NCBI GenBank assembly: GCA_050116575.1 | Contig: JASFOJ010000002.1 | Location: 559 to 64,558, forward strand | Reading direction: 5' to 3' | Origin: Gammaproteobacteria bacterium | GTDB lineage: Bacteria > Pseudomonadota > Gammaproteobacteria > SZUA-152 | DNA length: 64,000 nucleotides | In this document: positions 2,828 to 41,354 of the stretch, piece by piece | Layout of the letters: the number at the start of each line of letters is the position of its first letter | Position numbering within the stretch: the stretch's first letter is position 1 | The notes under the pieces: generated by a model | Seen by the model: only the letters and a program-made list of their open reading frames with translations | What the model was told of the DNA's origin: nothing | Database searches by the model: none | Program-made: the position numbers and the translations under genes

Positions 2828-5800
2828 GTGAAACGCGTTCGCGAGATACCCTACAATTATACTTCCTACACCGACCGCGAAATTGTATTGCGATATCTCG
2901 GTGAGGACATGTGGCAGACCGTCAATGAATTGCGCGGTTCGCGCCGCACCGGCCGGTCAGCGCGCATGATATTTGAAGTGCTTGGCGATATGTGGGTTAT
3001 CAGCCGTAATCCCTATATCCAGGATGACTTGCTGACCAACCCCAAACGCCATGCCTCCTTGACCCACGCCCTGCACCACCGGCTGGACCAGGTGATTGCC
3101 CGCGCCGAAGGTAACCAGCGCGCACTGGCGCTGGCCAACGCCTGTCGCAGGGCGGTGGAGGATTTCGAGACCTGGTTTCCCCGGCAAAAACAGTTGCGCC
3201 AAAAAGTTACCCGTAAGCTGGCACGCATCACCCATAAAGACAATATTCACTTCGACGGTCACGCGCGCATTTCGCACGTCACCGACGCCTCGGACTGGCG
3301 CGTGGAATTTCCCTTTGTGGTTATTACCCCGGATACCGAACAGGAAATGGCGGAGGTGGTTCACGCCTGTACACAGGCCGGGTTAAGTATTGTGCCCCGT
3401 GGTGGCGGCACCGGGTACACGGGCGGCGCAGTTCCATTACAAAACAATAGCGCGGTGATCAACACCGAAAAACTGGATCATATCGGCAGCGTCACCCAGG
3501 CTCGGCTCGAGGGCGTCGATGAACCTGTTACGACCATTGCCGTTGGCGCCGGTGTGGTTACACGCCGTGTAGCGGAACAGGCTGAAGCCCACGGTCATGT
3601 GTTCGCGGTGGATCCCACGTCACAGGATGCCTCCTGCATCGGCGGTAACATCGCCATGAACGCCGGCGGTAAAAAAGCCGTGCTCTGGGGCACCACGCTG
3701 GATAACCTGGTGTCCTGGCGCATGGTCACGCCCGATGCCAACTGGCTAGAAGTCACCCGCATCAATCATAACCTGGGCAAGATTCACGAACAGGAAATCG
3801 CCGAGTTTCGCGTCGACTACTACCAGCGCGACGGCAAAACACCGCTTAAAGACTCGATCACGTTGCGCATTCCCGGCAAGGAATTGCGCAAGCAGGGACT
3901 GGGCAAAGACGTCACCAATAAATTCCTCGGCGGCCTGCCCGGCATCCAGAAGGAAGGCTGTGACGGATTAATCACCTCGGCAGTCTTTATCTTACACCGC
4001 ATGCCAAAGCACATCCGCACGGTGTGCCTGGAATTTTTCGGCGCCGATATGCGCATGGCGGTGCCGGCAATCGTGGAAACCAAGGATTACCTGGACAGCC
4101 TGCCCGATGTGCAGCTGGCGGGCATGGAACATCTCGACGAGCGCTATGTACGCGCGGTGGATTACAGTACCAAGGCGGCCCGCCGCGAATATCCGAAAAT
4201 GGTGTTATTACTGGACATTGCCAGTGACGATGAAGACCAAAGTGCCAAAGCCGCTTCACAGGTGGTGCAAATGGCCAATGCCCGCAACGCCGAAGGATTT
4301 ATCGCCGTCAGCCCAGAAGCCAGGCACCGCTTCTGGCTGGATCGCAGCCGCACCGCGGCTATCGCCGCGCACACCAACGCCTTTAAGATCAACGAAGACG
4401 TTGTCATTCCGCTGGATAAACTGGCGGACTACAGCGAGGCCATCGAACGCATCAACATCGAGCTGTCTACCCGAAACAAACTGCGCATGATCAACGAAGT
4501 CATTGAGTTTCTCGATGACAAACTGCCGGACTACGTCAAGCTGTCCGACGACGAAACCAGTGCAGAAGGTGACGAAATCATTTTCGGTAAACAACAGGCA
4601 GCACGACAAGTGCTGACAAAAGTCAAAGACCAGTGGACGGACCTGCTGACGCATATCGATGATCCGGCCAACGAACACCGAAACCTCGTCGATGCGGAAC
4701 TGATCAACGAACAGAACAGCACGCTGGACAAGGTCATTCAATCCGACGAAAACCTGTTCCGCCTGCTGCAACGGCGCGAGCTGCGCATTTCCTATCGCCG
4801 CAGCGTAGAGCAGCCGCTAAAAGAGATTTTCGCCGGCAAGGAGTTTGAGCCGGTGCGCGCGCAGTTTGATGAAATCCATCGCGACATCCGTAACAGCCGG
4901 CTGTTTGTCGCCACCCACATGCACGCCGGTGACGGTAACGTGCATACCAATATTCCGGTACATTCCAACGATTACTATATGCTGCACGAAGCCGAGGAAG
5001 TGGTTGACCGCATCATGGATATCGCCGGGTCTCTGGGCGGCGTCATATCCGGAGAACACGGTATCGGCATCACCAAAATTCAGTACCTGGACGATCAAAG
5101 TATCGCGGCATTCAGCAAATACAAACGTGAGATTGACCCGCAAAACCGGTTCAACCCTGACAAATTGTCTCAAAAGCAGATTCTCGACAGTGCCTATACG
5201 CCGTCACTGCGCCTGCTGGAACAGGAAGCCATATTGCTGGAAGCCAGCGAACTGGGCGAACTGAATACTCATGTCAAGGATTGTCTGCGCTGCGGTAAAT
5301 GCAAGCCCGTCTGTAATACCCATGTGCCGCGGGCCAACCTGTTGTATTCACCGCGGGACAAGATACTGTCTTCGGGATTAATCATCGAGGCGTTTTTATA
5401 CGAAGAGCAAACCCGCCGCGGCATATCCGTGCGTCATTTTGATGAAATGACCGACGTTGCCGATCATTGTACGGTGTGCCACAAGTGCCTGAGCCCCTGT
5501 CCGGTGAACATCGACTTCGGTGATGTATCCATCCTGATGCGCAATTTGCTCAACTATCATGGCAAACGCAAAACCACCCTCGGCACCAGGCTGTCCATTG
5601 CTTATCTGAATATGACCGATCCCCGCGCCATCAGACTCATGCGCAAATATCTCATTGGATGGGGGTATAAACTGCAACGACTGGCCAACCGGTGGTACCG
5701 TAAATTCGTGCCCGCCGAGCGGGAGAAACGCCCCGATGCCACCACCGGCAAAATGGCATTAACCACCCAGGTGGTGCACTTTGTCAAAAAGCCCATGCCG

Positions 5801-6691
5801 GCAAACGTGCCGCGCCAGACCGCCCGGGAATTACTGGCGCTGGAGGACGATAAAACCATCCCCATTATTCGCAATCCTGAAGAGTTAACCGATGACACGG
5901 AAAGTGTATTCTATTTTCCGGGCTGCGGTTCCGAGCGGCTGTTCAGTCAAATTTCACTGGCCACCATTGCCATGTTGTACGACACCGGTGTCCAAACCGT
6001 GCTGCCGCCCGGTTACCTGTGCTGCGGGTACCCGCAAACTTCCAGTGGTGACGAAGAAAAAGGTAAACAAATCTCTGTCAACAACCAGGTGCTATTTCAC
6101 CGCGTGGCCAATACGCTGAACTATCTGGACATTAAAACCGTCCTGGTATCCTGCGGCACCTGTATCGACCAACTGGAGAAATACCGGTTTGATAAAATAT
6201 TTCCCGGCTGCCGCCTCATGGACATCCATGAATTCCTGATGGAAAAAGGCGTCACGTTACAAAACCCATCGGGCGTGCAATATCTGTATCACGATCCCTG
6301 TCATACACCGTTGAAGAAATACAGTCCCGCTAAAGTTACCCGCGCCCTGTTACAACAGGAGGTTCCGCTCTCCGACCGTTGTTGCGGCGAAGCGGGTACC
6401 TTCGCGGTATCGCGGCCAGATATAGCTACCCAGGTACGCTACCGTAAACAGGAAGAACTGACTAAGGGAATCCATCAACTGACAGGGGAAACGCTCGCCC
6501 GCGAGGGAAATGTGAAACTATTAACCTCCTGTCCGGCGTGCCAACAGGGACTGTCCCGCTACCGCAATGAAACCGGCCTGGATACCGACTACATCGTCGT
6601 GGAACTGGCCAATCAGCTGTTGGGTGAAAACTGGCAAGCGGAGTTTATCGAGCGCGCTCGCAAAGGCGGCATTGAACAGGTATTACTGTAG
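2828..6691 (+). CDS. DUF3683-FAD-linked oxidase-(Fe-S) oxidoreductase fusion protein (YdiJ-like 2-hydroxyacid dehydrogenase)
   Basis: The 1287-aa product uses a GTG start. Its N-terminus carries REIPYNYTS (DUF3683). A central FAD-binding PCMH domain ([15 protein letters not shown]) and a glycolate-oxidase-like C-terminal domain (EHGIGITK) follow. The distal part has two CxxCxxCxxxCP ferredoxin clusters and CCG domains like GlcF. Confidence 0.85.
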
Positions 6692-32006: not shown

Positions 32007-33239
32007 TTATTCGTAAGGGGATTCAGATGCGATCTTGTGGATACTGAGGTCGGCGCCGCGATGCTCGTCCTCCTGGCTAAGGCGTATCCCCACAATGGCT
32101 TTGATGGTGCCATAGACGATCAACCCGCCAACCAGCGCAATAACAATCCCCATCAAAGTCCCCACCAATTGTGACAGGAAACTGATTTTCACCGCAATGT
32201 CTCCATCGACGACCACATTACCGAGCCCGCCTAACGCCGAGGTGCCAAAGATGCCGCAGGCGATCCCACCCCAGGCACCACACAATCCATGCAGCGGCCA
32301 AACACCTAGCACATCATCGATCTTCCATTTGTTTTGCGTCAGCGTGAAGGTCCAGACAAACAACGCCCCGGCAACGCCACCGGTGATCAACGCGCCCACG
32401 GGGTGCATAACATCAGAGCCGGCGCAAATGGCAACCAGGCCGGCCAGTGGCCCGTTGTGCACAAAACCCGGGTCGTTTTTGCCCACGACCAAAGCGGCCA
32501 ATACGCCACCGACCATGGCCATCAGGGAATTGATTGCGACCAGCCCACTCACCGCTTCCACGGTCTGTGCCGACATCACGTTAAACCCGAACCATCCCAC
32601 CGTCAGTATCCACGCACCCAGCGCCAGAAAAGGAATATTGGACGGCGGATGCGACGACATGGGCGAACCGTCCTTACTGTAACGGCCCATACGGGCACCC
32701 AGCAGTAACACGGCTCCCAGCGCCAACCAGCCCCCCATGGCATGCACTACCACGGAACCGGCAAAGTCATGGAACTCCGCGCCAAACGTACGAGTCATCC
32801 AGCCCTGAACACCGAAATTACCATTCCAGGTAATGCCTTCAAAGAACGGATATATCAGCGCGACAATAACGAAACTGGCCAGCAACTGAGGATAAAACTT
32901 GGCGCGCTCGGCGATACCACCGGAGATAATGGCGGGTATGGCAGCCGCGAACGTCAGCAGAAAGAAAAATTTCACCAGTTCATAACCGTTCGCTTTGTTC
33001 AATACCGACGCCGCGTCCATGAAGTCCGTGCCATAGGCCACCACATAGCCGGCAAAAAAATACGCAATGGATGAAATGGAAAAGTCGGAAATAATTTTTA
33101 CCAACGCGTTGACCTGGTTTTTTTTCCTGACTGTTCCCACTTCCAGAAAGGCAAAACCGGAATGCATGGCCAACACCATAATGGCTCCCATCAAAATAAA
33201 AAGTACGTCACTCCCGGATTGTAGAGCTTCCATGATCAC
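32007..33239 (-). CDS. amt: Ammonium transporter (Amt family)
   Basis: The 410-aa product has 11 TM helices and Amt signature regions (DFAGSVVVHAMGGWLALGAVLLLGAR). Confidence 0.9.
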   Translation of the reverse strand: MIMEALQSGSDVLFILMGAIMVLAMHSGFAFLEVGTVRKKNQVNALVKIISDFSISSIAYFFAGYVVAYGTDFMDAASVLNKANGYELVKFFFLLTFAAAIPAIISGGIAERAKFYPQLLASFVIVALIYPFFEGITWNGNFGVQGWMTRTFGAEFHDFAGSVVVHAMGGWLALGAVLLLGARMGRYSKDGSPMSSHPPSNIPFLALGAWILTVGWFGFNVMSAQTVEAVSGLVAINSLMAMVGGVLAALVVGKNDPGFVHNGPLAGLVAICAGSDVMHPVGALITGGVAGALFVWTFTLTQNKWKIDDVLGVWPLHGLCGAWGGIACGIFGTSALGGLGNVVVDGDIAVKISFLSQLVGTLMGIVIALVGGLIVYGTIKAIVGIRLSQEDEHRGADLSIHKIASESPYE

Positions 33240-33497
33240 TCCAAATTGTTGTTTAAAATTTTAGCTGGATGAAAAATAAAAACGGGTGTTTGAGATTTTC
33301 GTTATTAATTGATTATTGATTCGGGGCTATTTATAACACAGGAGTGATTATAGCGGCCAGTGTGATGAACCGGGACGGTGCAGGCAAATCACTGTGTTCA
33401 CCGACATTTGCACCAACTTGGTTCACGCCGCGTAACAAGTTGCATTGATTCATTATACTGACGCAACGTTACCGTGAATGCACCATGTTAGTGCGCA

Positions 33498-34826
33498 TCA
33501 ATGGGCGATTTTGGGCCAATATTTGTTAAGATCGAACGAGGGACTGTGTTTTTGCACGTGACATTGACCGCACATCCTGGCTTTGGGCCAGTCTTTATTA
33601 GCGACCGGCTGTTTACCACCGGACGAAACATGTTGCCGGGCAGCACCGTGACAGTTTTCACACTGCACATTCATTAGATTGGGTGTCAGGCTGATGTCGA
33701 TAAATCCACCCTGCCGATTAAATCCCACCGTGTGGCATTGGATACATTCCGGATCAAAAGACTTCTGCACGATCTCCAGATCTTCAAACGCTTTAGCATG
33801 CTCGCTATCCTGCCACACTTTATATTGTTTGGCGTGACATTGCTGACACTGCTCTTCGCCGGCGAATGGACTGTCGCCGGATTGATGTTGTTTCTTTATC
33901 GCGACGCGCTTTTCATAGTTCTCTTTTACCTCGGCATTGTAATCGGCATACCAGTCTTTCATGCGAGGGGCATCGGGCACGGACTGGGGCATCGATATGA
34001 TATCGTGGCGCCAGCTTTTAATGTTGTTGCTGTCATCGAGGGTTAACTGAAGCTTGCCCAGCCGCATGCCCCGCGATCCGGGTTGCAGCACCAGGGTATG
34101 ACCTTTTTGTTCCGGCTCACTATAGACTTCATAGCCCGCCCTGACGAACAGGATATCAACACTATCCAGTGGCATTTGGTCCTTGATAATCGCCAGTGGT
34201 AACGTCGTGGTCAGCACGGTTAATACTCCCTGCTTATTAGTCGCCGCCAGGGATTTGGTGAGCTCATCAATATCATCATAAACCTGTGGTTTCCCCCCCG
34301 GCATCTGCCGCGCCGGCGAACTATCGGGATCGAGCCAGGTAAAAAAACGCAGAGCAATTTGCCGGCCGTTAATCGTCCGGGTAATCGTTCTGGATTTGGA
34401 AAATTTGTCATTCACCCAGTTTGTCGCCACCCAGGGCAGATCGTATTTTGCCGCAACTTCGGCGCCATAACTGAGGTCCGTCCACTGCACACCGATGGCG
34501 TCATAGTTCAAACGGCTGAATGCTTTGAAAATGTAACGTGATTTCAAATGATCATTGACACCCTGACTGGCAATCAAACCGCCGGCAGAAATAACGACAG
34601 TTTGCGGATTTTGCTTCCTTTGACGATCGAGTACCGTCGTACGCCGTTTAATACCGCCCAGGTCCCCTTCATCGGAGCAGCCGCAGGGTTCCAGTTCACC
34701 GTCCAGGTTACCGGAATAGATAACGGTCAATTCAGTTTGCTTAGCCACGGCGAGCGGCGCGGCTTGAAACATCAACAGGGCTATGAACACATACAAACCT
34801 GGGGTGAAATTATGCGATGGTTTCAT
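33498..34826 (-). CDS. Periplasmic protein with an unknown N-terminal domain fused to a C-terminal tetraheme c-type cytochrome
   Basis: It has a signal peptide. Four CxxCH motifs lie in the last ~130 aa (CQQCH, CIQCH, CENCH, CGQCH). The N-terminal ~300 aa has a conserved-looking SGNLDGELEPCGCSDEGDLGG block with no family I can name. Confidence 0.7.
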   Translation of the reverse strand: MKPSHNFTPGLYVFIALLMFQAAPLAVAKQTELTVIYSGNLDGELEPCGCSDEGDLGGIKRRTTVLDRQRKQNPQTVVISAGGLIASQGVNDHLKSRYIFKAFSRLNYDAIGVQWTDLSYGAEVAAKYDLPWVATNWVNDKFSKSRTITRTINGRQIALRFFTWLDPDSSPARQMPGGKPQVYDDIDELTKSLAATNKQGVLTVLTTTLPLAIIKDQMPLDSVDILFVRAGYEVYSEPEQKGHTLVLQPGSRGMRLGKLQLTLDDSNNIKSWRHDIISMPQSVPDAPRMKDWYADYNAEVKENYEKRVAIKKQHQSGDSPFAGEEQCQQCHAKQYKVWQDSEHAKAFEDLEIVQKSFDPECIQCHTVGFNRQGGFIDISLTPNLMNVQCENCHGAARQHVSSGGKQPVANKDWPKARMCGQCHVQKHSPSFDLNKYWPKIAH

Positions 34827-35158: not shown

Positions 35159-35926
35159 TCATTTAAAAGTCTTGCCTGCTTTGCGATACCAGTAGCGGGC
35201 GCTCTGCAAATCCTTTGCCATCCCATACAAGCCTTCGGCATAGGCCTTAGCCAATGCCTCGGCCGCGGGGCGGTAGCCACGATTGGCCGCGCGCCTGACC
35301 CACTCCATCCCACGGTCCTGGTCACGCTTGGTGCCTCTACCAGCCAGCGTCATCAACCCCAGCGTTAGCTGTGCTTTTCGCTGACCCTGCTCAGCTGCCT
35401 TGGTCAGCCACTTTACCGCCTGCTGATCGCTTTGTTGCACGCCATCACCATCCAGGTACATCAGCGCGATATTTTCCTGGCCCTTGGCATCCCCTTGTTC
35501 GGCGGCTGCCTTGAGCCACTTGGCCGCTTCCCGGGTATCCTTGCGCACACCGAGCCCAAACCGATACATGATGCCCAGACTGTTTTGTGCGCGAACGTGG
35601 CCCTGCTGCGCCGCCTCGCGATACCAATGAATGGCCTGTGCGTCGTTTTGTTGTACCCCCAGTCCATGCCGGTACATAACGCCCAATTTACGCTGAGCTT
35701 CGGGATTTCCCTGTTTCGCCAACGGGCCCAGATAGTGCCATGCCTGGGCGTAATCGCGTTGTTGATACGCCGCCAGTCCTTTTTGTAGATTGTCATGATC
35801 ATCGGCGGCAGCCGCTGCTGCCGGCAAACACAGAACCAACAGCAATAAAAACCCGGCCCCTACCGGAAACCGGCACAGTTGATTCACTTGCAATGGATTT
35901 TCAAGCATTAACATGACAGTCAACAT
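35159..35926 (-). CDS. Sel1-repeat (TPR-like) protein, secreted
   Basis: It has six or more Sel1 repeats (AQxxLGxMYxxGxGVxxD pattern) and an N-terminal signal/TM helix. Confidence 0.8.
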   Translation of the reverse strand: MLTVMLMLENPLQVNQLCRFPVGAGFLLLLVLCLPAAAAAADDHDNLQKGLAAYQQRDYAQAWHYLGPLAKQGNPEAQRKLGVMYRHGLGVQQNDAQAIHWYREAAQQGHVRAQNSLGIMYRFGLGVRKDTREAAKWLKAAAEQGDAKGQENIALMYLDGDGVQQSDQQAVKWLTKAAEQGQRKAQLTLGLMTLAGRGTKRDQDRGMEWVRRAANRGYRPAAEALAKAYAEGLYGMAKDLQSARYWYRKAGKTFK

Positions 35927-36166: not shown

Positions 36167-36631
36167 TTACGACGCCTGGCGGGGTGCGCAAATCACGCTA
36201 ATGATCTGATCTTCCAGTTCGATGCGGTCAGCCAACTCTTCTCCCAGATTGGACAGATCGTTCGCCAGTTCGGACAAATTATCGCAATGATCTTCGCAAT
36301 CATATTTATCGTTAAAGTCCAGGAACGCCTGGGTGGTTTCCGAAATACGATCGTACACTTTTTCCGCCACTTCCCGTACGGCGACACGCCGTTCCTTGTT
36401 TTCATCAATGTAGCGATACAGTTGAAAATGCGCCGAAGCAGTATAGTCGATCAGGCTTTCGCAAAAGCTTTGCAGCAGCACCTGCGTATCGTGGTCGGGA
36501 TTGAAAGGTTGTTTGGAGGCAAGTTCACTGAGCAATGCAAGTGTACCGGTTCTTGATTCAACCAACGCACTGATCTCGCGATGGGATTGTGCACGGCGTT
36601 CAACGACTGGCGCTTCGGTTTCTGACTGCAT
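36167..36631 (-). CDS. rsd: Rsd/AlgQ-family regulator of sigma-70 (anti-sigma factor)
   Basis: It aligns to E. coli Rsd blocks (FCESLIDYTASAHFQLYRYI ~ FCQSLVDYLSAGHFSIYERI; ELEDQII ~ LEDKLIL). The start is set at ATG 36631 after an AAAGAGG RBS. The ORF track's longer form to 36706 is unlikely. Confidence 0.7.
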   Translation of the reverse strand: MQSETEAPVVERRAQSHREISALVESRTGTLALLSELASKQPFNPDHDTQVLLQSFCESLIDYTASAHFQLYRYIDENKERRVAVREVAEKVYDRISETTQAFLDFNDKYDCEDHCDNLSELANDLSNLGEELADRIELEDQIISVICAPRQAS

Positions 36632-37261
36632 GGCGACCTCTTTCATTTTAATATTAAGGTTCCGATGTAGGCGTACCCCATGCATGTATCGACGTATCGA
36701 GCACACAATGGGACAAAATATGATTTTTAATTAAGTTTTTAGCAGTTTTGTTATTTCAACTTTAAGTGACAACAACCAAACGACTAAACCACTAACCACA
36801 TTCGCTGTTCAATCCGGTTTCACTATGCAATGTGCAATATTTTTATTCGGTATTATTTTGCTTCGCGATTTGTTAACTCGAATTGTTACATCATATTTTC
36901 GGGTGGGTTTGCAGTGTATTAACACATACCACATATGCATGATACGCAACACACATTAAATACACATCAACATCCCTATCAACGCCTTACAGCTTAACAT
37001 TAAAAGAACCAGTACCCGCTTATTGTTTCGTCTGGTACCGACTTGCCGTTACAACTGGTATCCACCCTGCTTACTGCTTGTATTGTTTGGACCTATAACT
37101 CGGACCTGTTGCTTGTTCCGATTATGCTATTTGAACCTGTGCGTCTGATCGGAAAGTTGCACCTACAAGCTTCTACGCGCGATAACAGGTAATATCCCTA
37201 ACCATTTTTCCCGAGCATGTTTATTTTGCAAAACTCTACCCCGCAGGTAAAGTGCAACCTG

Positions 37262-37627
37262 CTACATTTTTAACAATACTCGAATTTTTTCGATGAGTCG
37301 AGGAAAATCAACTGGCTTGGTATCGTATTCTTCGCAGCCGGCTTCCAGCGCTTTTTCACGATCCCCGGACATCGCGTGAGCCGTTAACGCGATGATTGGG
37401 ATATCTTTTATATCTTCCTTGGCTTTTATCTGACGTGTTGCCTCCCATCCATCCATAACCGGTAAACTCATATCCATCAAAATGAGGTCGGGGCGTTCCG
37501 AATCAGCCAGTTCCACCGCCGCTTGTCCGTCCAGCGCAAATACCACATCGAATCCTTTACGCTGTAAGCGGCGCGATAACATATCGCGGTTCATCTCGTT
37601 ATCTTCAACTAGCAATAATTTCGGCAT
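37262..37627 (-). CDS. Single-domain response regulator (CheY-like receiver)
   Basis: It has LLVEDNEMNRD, phospho-acceptor context DLILMDMSLP and K-site ALTAHAMSGD. Confidence 0.85.
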   Translation of the reverse strand: MPKLLLVEDNEMNRDMLSRRLQRKGFDVVFALDGQAAVELADSERPDLILMDMSLPVMDGWEATRQIKAKEDIKDIPIIALTAHAMSGDREKALEAGCEEYDTKPVDFPRLIEKIRVLLKM

Positions 37628-37711
37628 GCTAACACTCCATGAGCGTTTTTTACTGGGCTACCATCTTCGGCTTAATCACCAAACAAGCCTATTTGGAAGT
37701 TTGAATCGTGC

Positions 37712-38887
37712 TCACTCCGAATCCTGCGAATCCTGATAGTACTCCCGAATTCTTTGGAACTCGTTTTCCGTAGCCAGGAATGCGTCAATGACCGCCGGAT
37801 CAAAATGGCTACCCGCGTTTTCCTGCAATATGGTACGGCTGCGTTCGTGGCTGAATGCTTCTTTATAACAACGTTTGGATGTCAGTGCGTCATAGACATC
37901 ACCCAACGCCAGTATTCTGGCCACCAGCGGTATTTCGTTACCTTTTAGGCCGTAGGGATAACCGGAACCATCCCATTTTTCATGATGACTTTCTGCAATA
38001 TCTATGCCCATACGAATCAATGAATTACCGGGGTGCTGACGGTCTACTTCCCGTAACGTTTCAGCGCCGATAATGGGATGCGACTTCATGACTCGCCATT
38101 CTTCAACTGTCAACTTGCCCGGCTTGAGCAGTACGCTGTCGACAATACCCACCTTGCCTATATCATGCAGCGGACTGGCTGCATAAATATTATCAACAAA
38201 TTCCTGGTCAATGATAGATTGATATTGCGACAACCGGCCGAGATATTCCGAAATTACTTTGCAGTATTCTCGCATCCGCTCCAGATGTTCGCCGGTTTCA
38301 GGATCCCGGGACTCAGCCAGTTTGGACATGGCGAAGATCGCTCCCAGTTGGGCGGAGGTAATTTGCTGCACCTGCTGCTGAACTCTGTCTTTGAGCTCGT
38401 TGTTATATTCTTCAATCTGGCTACGGTAATTGCGCTCCTGGTCATGCAGCCGTTTACGCTCCAGACAGGTACTCACTCGGGCTTTTAGCAATACCGGATC
38501 AAAGGGTTTAGTCAGATAGTCTTCAGCCCCCAGTTGTATACAGCGGGCAGCGCTGGAAGTGTCATCAAGGGCAGTTATCATAATAACCGGGATCATATAT
38601 AAATCGTTATGCGACTTGATCTCCTGCAGGGTCTCAAAGCCATCCTTGATGGGCATCATAATATCCAGCAATACCAGATCGAATGATTGTTGATTCATCA
38701 CATCCAGCGCCTCGGCACCATCGCGCGCAACAACCACCTGGTATCCCAGTGGTTCCAACCGCCGGACGAGCATATCCCTGTTCATTTCGTTGTCATCGAC
38801 AACCAGCACCGCCGCTGACGGTTCAACATTCATATCGACTGCCCGTGGATTCGCTACAACGTTCATAGGTGATGCATCCTGGCCCAT
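37712..38887 (-). CDS. Response regulator with receiver + HD-GYP domain (c-di-GMP phosphodiesterase, RpfG-like)
   Basis: The N-terminal REC is VLVVDDNEMNRD...DLVLLDIMMP. The HD-GYP signatures are HDIGKVGI and HHEKWDGSGYPYGLKG. The true start may be an internal Met near 38833. Confidence 0.85.
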   Translation of the reverse strand: MGQDASPMNVVANPRAVDMNVEPSAAVLVVDDNEMNRDMLVRRLEPLGYQVVVARDGAEALDVMNQQSFDLVLLDIMMPIKDGFETLQEIKSHNDLYMIPVIMITALDDTSSAARCIQLGAEDYLTKPFDPVLLKARVSTCLERKRLHDQERNYRSQIEEYNNELKDRVQQQVQQITSAQLGAIFAMSKLAESRDPETGEHLERMREYCKVISEYLGRLSQYQSIIDQEFVDNIYAASPLHDIGKVGIVDSVLLKPGKLTVEEWRVMKSHPIIGAETLREVDRQHPGNSLIRMGIDIAESHHEKWDGSGYPYGLKGNEIPLVARILALGDVYDALTSKRCYKEAFSHERSRTILQENAGSHFDPAVIDAFLATENEFQRIREYYQDSQDSE

Positions 38888-38999
38888 TGGTTACAACTGA
38901 GCATTTTTTATCGGTGACTGAGATTCAACGTCCATATAGCCGGCGATGAACAGCTATATCGATGTAAGCGATAACCATAAAACACTCACCGCTCGCTAC

Positions 39000-41354
39000 T
39001 TATTCAGATGTTGTATCGTCCGTACCAGCCACATATTGAGCATGAGGCCTCGTTATTTGCTGATTTTCGCCCAGTATATCGCGAACTGCCGTTAACACCT
39101 GGTCAATACTGTAAGCTCCTTTCTGGATAATGAAGGAAACACGCTTTTCGAGGCGATAACTTTCATTTTCATCGAGTTCCATTGCCGTTAACGCGATAAC
39201 CGGTATTCCCCGCCAGCGCTCGTTGAGCTCCAGTTCGTTCAGAAATTCATGGCCATTCATATTGGGCATCAACAAATCCAGCAGGATAACGGAGGGAATG
39301 CGTTCGGCAACACGCATAAGCCCGAGGTAACCGTTTTCCGCTTCGATAACCGCATACCCGTCGTTTTCCAGCACCAACCGCGCCAATTTTCTTGCATCGG
39401 CGTCGTCATCTACAACCAGAATAGTATCCTGGCCCGCCTTGCGCACGCATTGGTTAATGGTTACGACAAGTTTCTCCCAATCAATGGGTTTGGTCAAATA
39501 TGCCGTGGCCCCCAGCGAATAGGCGGTATTTTTCTCGTCAATCATCGTCAGCATAATGACCGGAATATGCACCAGTCCCGGCTGGCTTTTAACATAAGTT
39601 AGTACCTGCCAACCACTCATATCGGTCAACATCACATCCAGCAGAATAACATCGGGTAGCAGCTCATTAATCTTTTTAATACCCTCTTCACCCCCCGTCG
39701 CACAAACAACCTGGTAGCCGTTTTTTGCCAAGTGGCGCTGCTGCAGATCACAGGCCATGGGATCGTCATCAATAATCACAATGGTACTGGTTTTGGTGCG
39801 CCGGTCATATTCCAATTCCCTGATACCCGCTTGCTGGGTGCGGACTTTGCTATACGAGCCACGCGGTTTTTGCGGCACCTGCTCCGACGTATCCGTTGAT
39901 TCCGGCTCCTTGATCACGACGGGCAGAGAGAGGGTAAATACCGAACCTTTCCCTAAATCACTCTCAACGGATATTTCCCCACCCATTAACCGGCAAAATT
40001 TCTGGCTGATCGTCAAACCCAGACCGGTACCACCATAGCGACGGGTCGTCGACATATCCGCCTGTGAAAATGCATTGAACAGGGTCTCCATTTGACTATC
40101 GGATAAACCGATCCCCGTATCGGTTACCACAAACTTGACCCATTCCTCCCCGTCCAGCATTTCCCGGTGGACGTGCAGCTTTATTTTGCCACCTTTGGTA
40201 AACTTGACGGCGTTGCTTAGCAGATTAAGCAACGACTGCCGCAGTTTCATAATATCGACCTTAATGGTGCCGACACCTTCCGGGCAATCAACTTCAATGT
40301 CGTCATCATTCTTGCCCGCCATCGGCTTGACGATACTAACCACCTCCTCCACCAACAAATGAACCTTTACATCCTCCAGGTACAATTGCATGCGGCCGGC
40401 TTCTATTTTGGATAAATCCAGTACGTCATTAATCAGCGCCAGGAGATTTTTACCGGCCGCGTAAATCTTGTTCAAATCATTATTGAGATGAGGATGGTCG
40501 ATGTTAGCTGATTCCTCCCGTAACATTTCACTGTAGCCAATAATGGCGTTAAGAGGCGTCCTCAACTCATGACTCATATTGGCCAGAAACTGGCTTTTTG
40601 CCTTGTTGGCCGACTCGGCCTGCAACTTCTCCTTGAGGGCATTTTGGGCGGCTTCGTGCTCCAGGCGCAATTGCTCGTCGCGCAGGCTTAACCGTGAAAA
40701 CAACTGGTTCACCGCCTGCCAAACCTGTCTGATTTCCATGGCCATTTTCTTTTTTGGATACGGGACGCTGGTGGATTTATTGAGATCCACCGACTCCAGA
40801 TAATGCGCAAGCACATGTAACGGGTTCAGCAACGTGGATATTTTGCGCTGCACAATAAGAATCAACAGCACCACCGCCACCAACGCCATAAACAGGCGTT
40901 TTTCAGCGTCGTCTATTAAATGATGATATAACTCGCTGTTGTACTCCAAGTGAACCTTGCCAAGCAAACCGGAAGTCGCCGAATCGAATATCGGCGTATC
41001 TGCCACAAAAGGTTCGTACTCAAGCTTAATGGGGTTTGAACGTTCTATAACTTCGCCGGACACCAGTGCCACTTTGATACTGACAACCAGCGGGCGTTTC
41101 AATTTGGAGTCTTTTAACAACACCAGGTGGTTTAAGATTTCCTCCACCTGCCCCAGATCATTGTTATTAATGGACTGCTCAATAAGTCTCGTATAAGGTG
41201 TCACCAGCAGGTCAGCCTTGGTTTGCTCACCGCCCTTGATAACCGGCACCATCATGAACACCCAGTGCGTAGATATTGCGACCATCACGAACAACATGAT
41301 CCCTACCAGGAACAGCGTCACTTTATTGGTTATTCGGCCAAAAAACTTACTCAT
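39000..41354 (-). CDS. Hybrid sensor histidine kinase (TM sensor-HisKA-HATPase-REC-REC)
   Basis: It has an H-box MSHELRTPLNAIIGYSEML and a G-box GGTGLGLTIS. The two receiver domains are VIIDDDPMAC...ILLDVMLTDMSG and LVVDDDADAR...ILLDLLMPNMNG. It has no Hpt domain. Confidence 0.9.
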   Translation of the reverse strand: MSKFFGRITNKVTLFLVGIMLFVMVAISTHWVFMMVPVIKGGEQTKADLLVTPYTRLIEQSINNNDLGQVEEILNHLVLLKDSKLKRPLVVSIKVALVSGEVIERSNPIKLEYEPFVADTPIFDSATSGLLGKVHLEYNSELYHHLIDDAEKRLFMALVAVVLLILIVQRKISTLLNPLHVLAHYLESVDLNKSTSVPYPKKKMAMEIRQVWQAVNQLFSRLSLRDEQLRLEHEAAQNALKEKLQAESANKAKSQFLANMSHELRTPLNAIIGYSEMLREESANIDHPHLNNDLNKIYAAGKNLLALINDVLDLSKIEAGRMQLYLEDVKVHLLVEEVVSIVKPMAGKNDDDIEVDCPEGVGTIKVDIMKLRQSLLNLLSNAVKFTKGGKIKLHVHREMLDGEEWVKFVVTDTGIGLSDSQMETLFNAFSQADMSTTRRYGGTGLGLTISQKFCRLMGGEISVESDLGKGSVFTLSLPVVIKEPESTDTSEQVPQKPRGSYSKVRTQQAGIRELEYDRRTKTSTIVIIDDDPMACDLQQRHLAKNGYQVVCATGGEEGIKKINELLPDVILLDVMLTDMSGWQVLTYVKSQPGLVHIPVIMLTMIDEKNTAYSLGATAYLTKPIDWEKLVVTINQCVRKAGQDTILVVDDDADARKLARLVLENDGYAVIEAENGYLGLMRVAERIPSVILLDLLMPNMNGHEFLNELELNERWRGIPVIALTAMELDENESYRLEKRVSFIIQKGAYSIDQVLTAVRDILGENQQITRPHAQYVAGTDDTTSE

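Follow-up and report, generated by a model that had tools for sequence, protein, structure and literature searches.

Organization of the locus and of the protein

The gene analysed here lies on the minus strand of a 64 kb stretch of gammaproteobacterial DNA (contig JASFOJ010000002.1; the whole stretch of 64 000 nucleotides is called the window below). Its 442-residue product, referred to as the target, joins a degenerate UshA-like domain to a tetraheme cytochrome domain of the c554 type (Table 1). The N-terminus, MKPSHNFTPGLYVFIALLMFQAAPLAVA followed by KQ, looks like a Sec signal peptide whose cleavage site is of the AxA type. An AlphaFold2 (AF2) model of the target, built with 78 homologues (predicted local distance difference test score, pLDDT, 85.6; predicted template modelling score, pTM, 0.77), has a helix at residues 8–22, begins the folded domain at residue 31 and contains no transmembrane segment beyond the signal peptide. 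An earlier note on this DNA had recognized the signal peptide and four CxxCH motifs late in the protein; all four indeed lie within the last 116 residues. Its description of a periplasmic fusion between a non-cytochrome domain, which measures about 260 residues, and a c554-type tetraheme module also holds.

Table 1. Positions of the target gene, its parts and neighbouring features in the window.
Feature	Position (nt)	Strand	Remarks
Target ORF	33498..34826	−	442 aa, ATG start
Signal peptide, residues 1–28	34743..34826	−	Cleavage after LAVA; sequence reading
Degenerate 5′-nucleotidase/UshA-like (calcineurin-like) domain, residues 29–286	33969..34742	−	Foldseek, NCBIfam, profile alignment
PCGC motif, P47 C48 G49 C50	34677..34688	−	Proposed redox centre; conservation, TGA alignment
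Linker helix between domains, residues 287–315 (29 residues)	33882..33968	−	AF2 secondary structure
Tetraheme c554-type cytochrome domain, residues 316–442	33501..33881	−	PF13435, PF14522, PDB matches
Heme motif 1, CQQCH, residues 327–331	33834–33848	−	
Heme motif 2, CIQCH, residues 361–365	33732–33746	−	
Heme motif 3, CENCH, residues 389–393	33648–33662	−	
Heme motif 4, CGQCH, residues 419–423	33558–33572	−	
Spacer between target and amt	33240..33497	−	258 bp, outside the protein module; probably amt control region
TATAAT hexamers in spacer	33452–33457, 33347–33352		Two, both perfect
GGTGCA/TGCACC half-sites in spacer	33479–33484, 33409–33414, 33377–33382		Resemble NtrC-binding half-sites
amt	32007..33239	−	PF00909, E 4e-87; neighbour only, not a conserved partner
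Sel1-repeat protein, secreted	35159–35926	−	PF08238, 5 repeats, E 1.3e-43; directly upstream of target
Rsd/AlgQ	36167–36706	−	After the kinase/response-regulator cluster
Hybrid histidine kinase (784 aa), HD/HD-GYP-type response regulator (391 aa), single-domain response regulator (121 aa)	37262–41354	−	
ORF with a single CxxCH	2828–6691	+	1287 aa

Fold of the N-terminal domain

The earlier note could assign the N-terminal block (IYSGNLDGELEPCGCSDEGDLGG, residues 36–58) to no family. It belongs, however, to NCBIfam NF041198, ‘UshA-like (seleno)protein (PCGU)’, which the target matches with E = 1.7e-70 and 238.1 bits, under the 275-bit cutoff of that model. The match consists of two stretches and runs on into the cytochrome, with target residues 266–432 corresponding to positions 344–517 of the 519-position profile; the fusion of this domain to a cytochrome is thus already part of a known family, an outcome that the earlier note had named as counting against its reading. 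Two relatives that carry selenocysteine (Sec), L049 (344.3 bits) and L057 (286.2 bits), pass the cutoff; L061 (260.6 bits) and L031 (201.3 bits) fall under it. Weaker NCBIfam matches of the N-terminal domain are to NF049981 (UshA-like selenoprotein family 2; 6.6e-12) and to SoxB (TIGR04486; 4e-7). The target, a Cys form, falls in a sister clade of the catalogued family, one made up mainly of gammaproteobacterial members. Selenoproteome surveys list that family as ‘COG0737, UshA-like, CxU motif’, without a function (PMC2398784, PMC9312934, PMC13188914), and the last of these cites NF041198. The searchable literature yielded catalogue entries only and no functional study of UshA-like/cytochrome/DsbA-like-multiheme proteins.

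When the AF2 model was compared with the PDB by Foldseek, the matches were 5′-nucleotidases: 3ive/3ivd (E. coli c4898), CD73, UshA and YfkN, with E values of 1.7e-16 to 1e-14. They span ∼ 310 columns at 11–19% identity to the target. The N-terminal domain is therefore a metallophosphatase α/β sandwich, the calcineurin-like fold of UshA, the 5′-nucleotidases and SoxB. Judging from this fold match, helix 287–315 appears to take the position of the interdomain helix of the 5′-nucleotidases, and the cytochrome domain occupies the place of the domain that closes over their active site.

Alignment of the target to the 5′-nucleotidase 3ivd by profile (E = 1.9e-9) indicates that the canonical dimetal site has been lost. 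DxHxH is replaced by N40-x-D42-x-E44, GD by G82-G83, GNHE by Q114-W115-T116-D117 and GHxH by A230 and Y232, such that the six canonical ligand positions hold N, D, G, W, A and Y instead. In the Pfam scan the C-terminus gave Cytochrome_C554 and Cytochrome_C7, and the N-terminal domain gave no match to Metallophos (PF00149) at E up to 1. Nor was there a Pfam match to 5_nucleotid_C, residues 316–442 being cytochrome instead. Sec-form relatives retain the GD and GH motifs.

An invariant PCG[C/U] motif

The PCG[C/U] motif is the sole strictly conserved feature of the N-terminal domain across the family alignment (75 sequences from 80 genome loci, about ten phyla). P47, C48, G49 and C50 are 100% conserved, and the full set of N-domain residues conserved at ≥ 85% is G43, P47, C48, G49, C50, G57, G58, R61, G82, D109, D224 and G253. 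The aligned members come from Gammaproteobacteria, Nitrospinia, Nitrospirota, Thermodesulfobacteriota, Acidobacteriota, Eisenbacteria, Myxococcota, Latescibacterota and SAR324, and the family as a whole is found in at least 555 species-level genomes and more than 1000 protein clusters. Four different gammaproteobacterial-type copies (P0010, P0011, P0014, P0113) are labelled ‘Kaarinaea lacus’, which NCBI taxonomy places in the cyanobacterial order Nostocales; these copies probably derive from contigs of accompanying bacteria, the assembly being non-axenic.

In 22 of 74 related loci an in-frame TGA stands in the column of C50 (EPCG, then TGA), with the frame otherwise intact. Sec-form loci have a hairpin resembling a bacterial selenocysteine insertion sequence (SECIS) ∼ 20 nt past the TGA, with compensatory changes in its stem; one such change is GGACUCGCC/GGGCGAGUC versus GGGCUUGCC/GGGCAAGCC. 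The hairpin overlaps the codons of the conserved GGLARRA motif (for example in L057, L063, L067 and L079). The window protein has cysteine at position 50, not selenocysteine. Invariant Cys/Sec pairs mark catalytic redox residues in selenoproteomics, and because its column aligns with TGA/selenocysteine, C50 is marked as the likely redox centre. A HMMER search of the full library with the N-terminal domain alone returned 1493 representative clusters. Among the best 150 of these 1493 representatives, every full-length PCGC protein has exactly four CxxCH motifs, which argues that motif and hemes are inherited together.

The tetraheme cytochrome domain

The C-terminal domain matches Cytochrome_C554 (PF13435, E = 5.9e-17; cutoff 20.8 bits) and Cytochrome_C7 (PF14522, 3.2e-8). 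In the PDB the target sequence finds cytochrome c554 (1bvb, E = 4e-12), and a profile of the family finds c554 (1bvb, 2e-15), OcwA (6i5b, 4.7e-15) and MccA (4.6e-7). The score against the c554 equivalog model NF043010 is 48.9 bits, where the cutoff is 400. The earlier note had called the module ‘c554/NapC-type’. The first half of that label is borne out by these matches, but the second is not: the target scores 18.9 bits against PF03264 (NapC/NirT), where 24.1 are required, its hemes are C-terminal and its N-terminus is a cleavable signal peptide rather than an anchor.

All four CxxCH motifs are conserved across the family alignment. The only candidate distal histidines conserved family-wide are H343, H399 and H442; H427 is invariant in the closest relatives (∼ 50% identity and above) and is R, Q, N or S in distant clades. 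Hemes 1–4 of OcwA can be overlaid on the c554 hemes, and in all three proteins, c554, OcwA and MccA, the open heme of the active site is heme 2 (PMC6703420). The CIQCH motif of the target aligns with the second heme motif of c554. Because there are three distal histidines for four hemes, and because of this scaffold and alignment, one face of heme 2 may, in much of the family, have no histidine from the protein. This heme would be the likely contact point for the CG[C/U] loop.

Linkage to DsbA-type proteins

Neighbouring genes were surveyed by all-against-all clustering of the ORFs of 81 loci and by a Pfam scan of 48 immediate same-strand neighbours. A single recurrent functional family emerged, a secreted DsbA-type protein of ∼ 210 residues; the other neighbours were heterogeneous housekeeping genes and were set aside as partners. 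Sec-form loci have DciA, GatC/GatA, FKBP and FAD oxidases beside the gene, as judged by sequence reading. The DsbA-type gene follows the target homologue on the same strand within ∼ 120 bp, once with a 3 bp overlap, in 13 of 80 loci (L031–L033, L035–L043 and L050). A further copy, detected with the subfamily profile, lies directly upstream in L025 (Pseudohongiella, of the window's clade), which brings the adjacent cases to 14 of 80 genome loci. The neighbour scores 9.6e-11 against PF01323 and 3.6e-12 and 1.8e-10 against NCBIfam DsbA models. Its active-site region reads EF[LF]SFYCxxCYxFE, which looks very close to that of E. coli DsbA.

The reciprocal test began from 80 metagenome loci chosen by the DsbA subfamily alone. 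A target homologue stands immediately upstream of DsbA, at gaps of 14–236 bp, in 56 of the 73 that could be evaluated; in the other seven the upstream sequence was too short to judge. Sixteen had no target homologue and one (L162) had only a weak match, downstream of DsbA. The 16 loci without a target did not carry DsbB or VKOR in its place, only small Cys-rich secreted proteins or unrelated genes. In Nitrospirota-type loci of this kind a small secreted Cys-rich protein of ∼ 110 residues (…CEC…GCQxDCQCPCN…) sits at the target position (L134:3558-3881, L141:3453-3782, L147:3474-3818); it may serve as a substrate of DsbA or bind metal.

The two proteins also occur as one chain. P0177 (643 aa), P0181 (627 aa) and P0200 (653 aa) consist of a signal peptide, the PCGC domain, four hemes and a DsbA domain with the active site FFNFYCSRCYVF (CSRC). 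These DsbA domains match the profile of the adjacent-gene DsbA at 1e-30 to 1e-38, and so belong to the same dedicated subfamily. Their cores resemble the gammaproteobacterial clade most, and the window protein ranks among their best matches (33% identity, E = 1e-70). P0172 (1195 aa) and P0187 (1207 aa), which are closest to the Sec clade, each hold two UshA-like modules, the first with CDC or CEC and no hemes, the second with CGC and four hemes. The modules are separated by a DsbA-like domain (CIHC in P0172) and ∼ 300 residues of unassigned sequence, an arrangement that looks like a built-in multi-step disulfide relay. In all, five representative proteins are fused to DsbA, three of them closest to the window's clade. 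DsbA is thus linked to the family in four ways, as a gene downstream or upstream and as a domain fused at the C-terminus or internally, and the link is present in all major branches of the family. The module has other architectures as well: among P0234 (772 aa), P0206 (898 aa) and P0202 (953 aa) there occur N-terminal DUF1573/Ig-like repeats, an N-terminal PMT_2-type membrane domain or a C-terminal extension of ∼ 500 residues without a family match.

Some target–DsbA pairs have further neighbours. ResB lies beside the pair in 15 of 80 metagenome loci and in L033 and L037–L039, divergently transcribed and confined to one syntenic lineage. A P-type ATPase of the Zn/Cd/Pb (ZntA) type (TIGR01525, E = 2e-187) is found upstream, mostly divergent, in 16 metagenome loci and in L037–L039 and L050. 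A short cation diffusion facilitator (CDF) transporter with an N-terminal CC motif is found downstream of the pair in L031, L032, L042 and three metagenome loci. L035 has a CcdA-like fragment upstream, as read from its sequence. The heavy-metal link is real, but it is limited to a few related lineages and is used below only in support of an alternative reading.

Surroundings of the gene and the amt neighbour

The earlier note stated that amt follows in the same orientation 258 bp downstream, with no glnK between the two genes, and this is exact; the ORF list of the window has no glnK-sized ORF there or after amt. The meaning that it attached to the pairing did not survive a wider comparison, which used blastp of amt against the ORFs of the 80 genome loci, neighbourhood maps and the contigs of the two closest relatives, P0001 (91% identity) and P0002 (72%). 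The target's neighbours in the window are Rsd, a Sel1-repeat protein, amt, miaB and phoH. Both relatives share a collinear block of hybrid kinase, HD response regulator, response regulator, Rsd, Sel1-repeat protein, target, amt, miaB, phoH, ybeY, corC and lnt. Besides these two, amt is next to the target in three of the 80 loci (L006, L016, L026). In L001 and L002 the target is followed directly by miaB-phoH-ybeY-corC, without amt. It is likewise missing from ∼ 24 other gammaproteobacterial loci and from all 50 distant ones, where the neighbours are unrelated. We therefore rejected amt as a functional partner, since it accompanies the target only within one collinear housekeeping block of a single gammaproteobacterial lineage. 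Because the spacer contains two TATAAT hexamers and three NtrC-like half-sites (Table 1), amt probably has its own nitrogen-regulated promoter. No terminator-like site was predicted on the minus strand of the gap, by a promoter/terminator scan that performed at chance level, and read-through from the target into amt is therefore possible.

The Sel1-repeat protein has no cysteine in its mature part. Homologues stand directly upstream of the target in L026, in L004, which has different flanks, and in the close relatives L081–L083; another lies ∼ 1.2 kb upstream in L030 (Magnetococcales). With recurrence in four genome loci and close relatives only, and no cysteine in the mature part, it was rejected as a general partner, and it may be an accessory one in part of the clade. 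The kinase/response-regulator cluster, together with the Rsd/AlgQ gene that follows it, keeps its place and order next to the target block in the closest relatives (L081, L082).

A nitrogen-compound redox role (hydroxylamine or nitrite), which the earlier note had suggested, is not supported by the context: no nitrogen-cycle gene recurs beside the family and none turned up among the neighbours examined. The 64 kb window contains no hao, amo, nrf or nir and no multi-CxxCH ORF apart from the target; the 1287-residue ORF listed in Table 1 is the only other one with a CxxCH, and has just one. The c554/OcwA/MccA heme scaffold as such may still allow small-molecule chemistry.

Proposed function and alternatives

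We tentatively favour, with slightly less than even confidence, a model where the target is a soluble periplasmic thiol/disulfide-to-heme oxidoreductase, probably a heme-based re-oxidant of DsbA, centred on a CGC pair that is carried by a 5′-nucleotidase-type scaffold. We infer that the CGC pair is redox active, that it communicates with the hemes and that electrons flow towards them. The catalytic centre would be Cys48-Gly-Cys50 (Cys-Gly-Sec in relatives) on a scaffold devoid of a dimetal site. Exchange with a periplasmic DsbA-type protein of the thioredoxin fold would make the pair cycle between its dithiol and its disulfide state. The two electrons would then pass singly through the four hemes, with heme 2 as the probable entry point, and continue to periplasmic cytochromes, the respiratory chain or an oxidase. 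In the oxidative order, electrons would pass from a substrate dithiol to DsbA, to CGC, to the hemes and to the periplasmic cytochrome pool or oxidase, a role that membrane-bound DsbB or VKOR fills elsewhere. This direction is preferred because the partner's active site is that of a classical DsbA of the oxidase type, and because a DsbA gene usually stands beside, or is fused to, the gene for its re-oxidant. Fusion and adjacency evidence of the same kind first identified VKOR as a DsbB substitute.

A thiolate or selenolate near an open heme could couple the dithiol to the hemes without flavin or quinone, and selenocysteine is perhaps favoured in some lineages for one-electron intermediates. Direct coupling of this sort is unusual; selenium tolerates one-electron steps better, and a cysteine lies close to heme in TsdA and SoxXA. 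Rapid disulfide formation might in addition help to protect against thiophilic metals, which would fit the Zn/Cd ATPase and CDF genes that flank the pair in some lineages. The broader proposal is that the family constitutes a third route of DsbA re-oxidation after DsbB and VKOR, soluble and independent of quinone, with CGC/Sec electrons passing directly into hemes, and that the window gene is a stand-alone Cys-type member of it. We regard this as possible but rather doubtful.

Several observations weigh against re-oxidation of DsbA by the target. There is no DsbA-like gene in the 64 kb window, and DsbA is adjacent in only one of ∼ 31 loci of the gammaproteobacterial clade. The DsbA-type partner of the window protein would have to be encoded elsewhere in the genome, and the link to it is drawn by homology at 27–42% identity. 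Many of the adjacent cases in the reciprocal test share one syntenic Nitrospirota/Thermodesulfobacteriota block (ResB, (ZntA), target, DsbA, TsaB, RimI), and the number of independent events is therefore far smaller than 56. A two-electron dithiol would have to be coupled to one-electron hemes, and no flavin, quinone or Fe-S centre that could mediate this is evident. Marine aerobes with the gene (Motiliproteus, Pseudohongiella) are expected to have DsbB too. A residual metal site is possible in the Sec forms, which keep GD and GH. Finally, the CGC loop is poorly predicted by AF2 (residues 50–53, pLDDT < 50), although weak prediction would also fit a loop that needs a cofactor or a partner.

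Electrons might run in the reverse direction, from the hemes to the CGC/CGU pair, and so keep a DsbA-like or other thioredoxin-fold protein reduced independently of DsbD/CcdA, for example to reduce apocytochrome CxxCH during system II cytochrome c maturation or to repair periplasmic thiols that have become oxidised. Most characterised selenoproteins with a Cys/Sec pair are reductases, c554-type domains may hold low-potential hemes, and both the ResB adjacency and the CcdA-like fragment in L035 point the same way. However, ResB is divergent and restricted to one syntenic lineage, and the active site of the partner (EF[LF]SFYCxHCYxFE) is of the classical oxidase DsbA type, not of the TlpA/ResA/CcmG type; we consider this reversal unlikely. 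To about the same degree we doubt that the target is a small-molecule or metal(loid) redox enzyme, in which an open heme 2 and the Cys/Sec loop would act together on sulfide, thiosulfate, sulfite, selenite, NO, hydroxylamine or a thiophilic metal ion while the DsbA-like protein only maintains or loads the cysteines. The scaffold shared with c554, OcwA and MccA, where heme 2 is catalytic (PMC6703420), is consistent with such an enzyme, as are the Sec forms, which match SoxB at up to 1.5e-23 and keep GD and GH, and the ZntA-type ATPase and CDF transporter that flank the target–DsbA pair. Yet genes of the sulfur, selenium or nitrogen cycle do not recur beside the family in the 80 loci, which span many phyla, the presence of the gene in aerobic heterotrophs as well as anaerobes speaks against a specialised energy metabolism, and the transporter neighbours, limited to a few related lineages, fit disulfide formation as well, E. 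coli mutants in dsbA being reported as sensitive to Cd and Zn. In favour of such an enzyme, a cysteine beside heme can carry out S-S chemistry without flavin in TsdA and SoxXA.

Two further alternatives fare much worse. Coupling of a hydroxylamine or nitrite redox protein to amt draws on the c554-type domain, on the amt adjacency in the window, its two closest relatives and three genome loci, and on the gap without a predicted terminator. It is made very improbable by the loss of amt from the L001/L002 block and its absence from all the other loci, by the promoter-like elements of the spacer, by the lack of hao, amo, nrf, nir and a second multi-CxxCH ORF in the window and by the NF043010 score, far under its cutoff. 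That the target is an active 5′-nucleotidase or phosphoesterase with a cytochrome tail is scarcely credible: the fold matches 5′-nucleotidases, and JGI labels relatives as 2′,3′-cyclic-nucleotide 2′-phosphodiesterase, but all six metal-ligand positions are replaced, neither Metallophos nor 5_nucleotid_C is matched and a heme domain stands in for the substrate-binding C-terminal domain.

The account of a novel domain linked to ammonium uptake is thus largely explained away by a catalogued family and local synteny. Selenoprotein catalogues have included that family for nearly twenty years, and no function had been proposed for it. The present analysis adds its repeated fusion and operon link to a dedicated DsbA subfamily, which we did not find in the searchable literature and which gives a testable hypothesis. 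If true, periplasmic disulfide formation or reduction would be wired to cytochrome c pools, not to quinones, and a hydrolase fold would have been converted into a redox scaffold.

Comparison with known systems

The closest described relatives are the UshA-like proteins of Zhang and Gladyshev (NF041198/COG0737), which share with the target the PCG[U/C] domain plus four CxxCH motifs along the whole model, including the Cys/Sec column. The target differs in being the Cys form, with a more degenerate phosphatase domain (GD to GG; GH to A..Y). With the 5′-nucleotidases UshA, CD73, c4898 (3ivd) and YfkN it has in common the fold of the N-terminal domain, the GGxxR motif and the interdomain helix; it lacks, however, the dimetal ligands, and the nucleotide-binding C-terminal domain is exchanged for a tetraheme cytochrome. 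SoxB belongs to the same superfamily, but the target reaches 28.7 bits against a 550-bit cutoff, has no di-manganese ligands and has no sox genes nearby.

The first three heme motifs of the target and its WxxSxHA distal-histidine motif align with residues 2–105 of cytochrome c554, and heme 2 has no family-wide conserved sixth ligand, as in the c554/OcwA/MccA scaffold. Cytochrome c554 (CycA) is a free-standing protein of ∼ 230 residues that works with hydroxylamine oxidoreductase (HAO), whereas the target module is a domain within a 442-residue protein, with a c7-like fourth heme region, outside any HAO or ammonia monooxygenase (AMO) context and without an HAO-like multi-CxxCH ORF in the window.

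Transfer of thiol or disulfide electrons to c-type hemes, as proposed here, occurs in flavocytochrome c sulfide dehydrogenase, TsdA, SoxXA and the Mia40-Erv1-cytochrome c relay. Those Cys-heme enzymes use FAD or a Cys-ligated heme within a cytochrome fold; the target, which has no flavin-binding motif, carries its Cys pair on a separate phosphatase-derived domain. DsbB and VKOR have no kinship with the target in sequence or fold, and neither family was matched in the Pfam and NCBIfam profile scans. They are four-helix membrane bundles, whereas the target is predicted to be soluble, and its proposed acceptor is heme c instead of a quinone. What the target does share with them is a conserved vicinal Cys pair; some of its relatives, though not the window protein itself, are adjacent or fused to DsbA, as in the case of VKOR.

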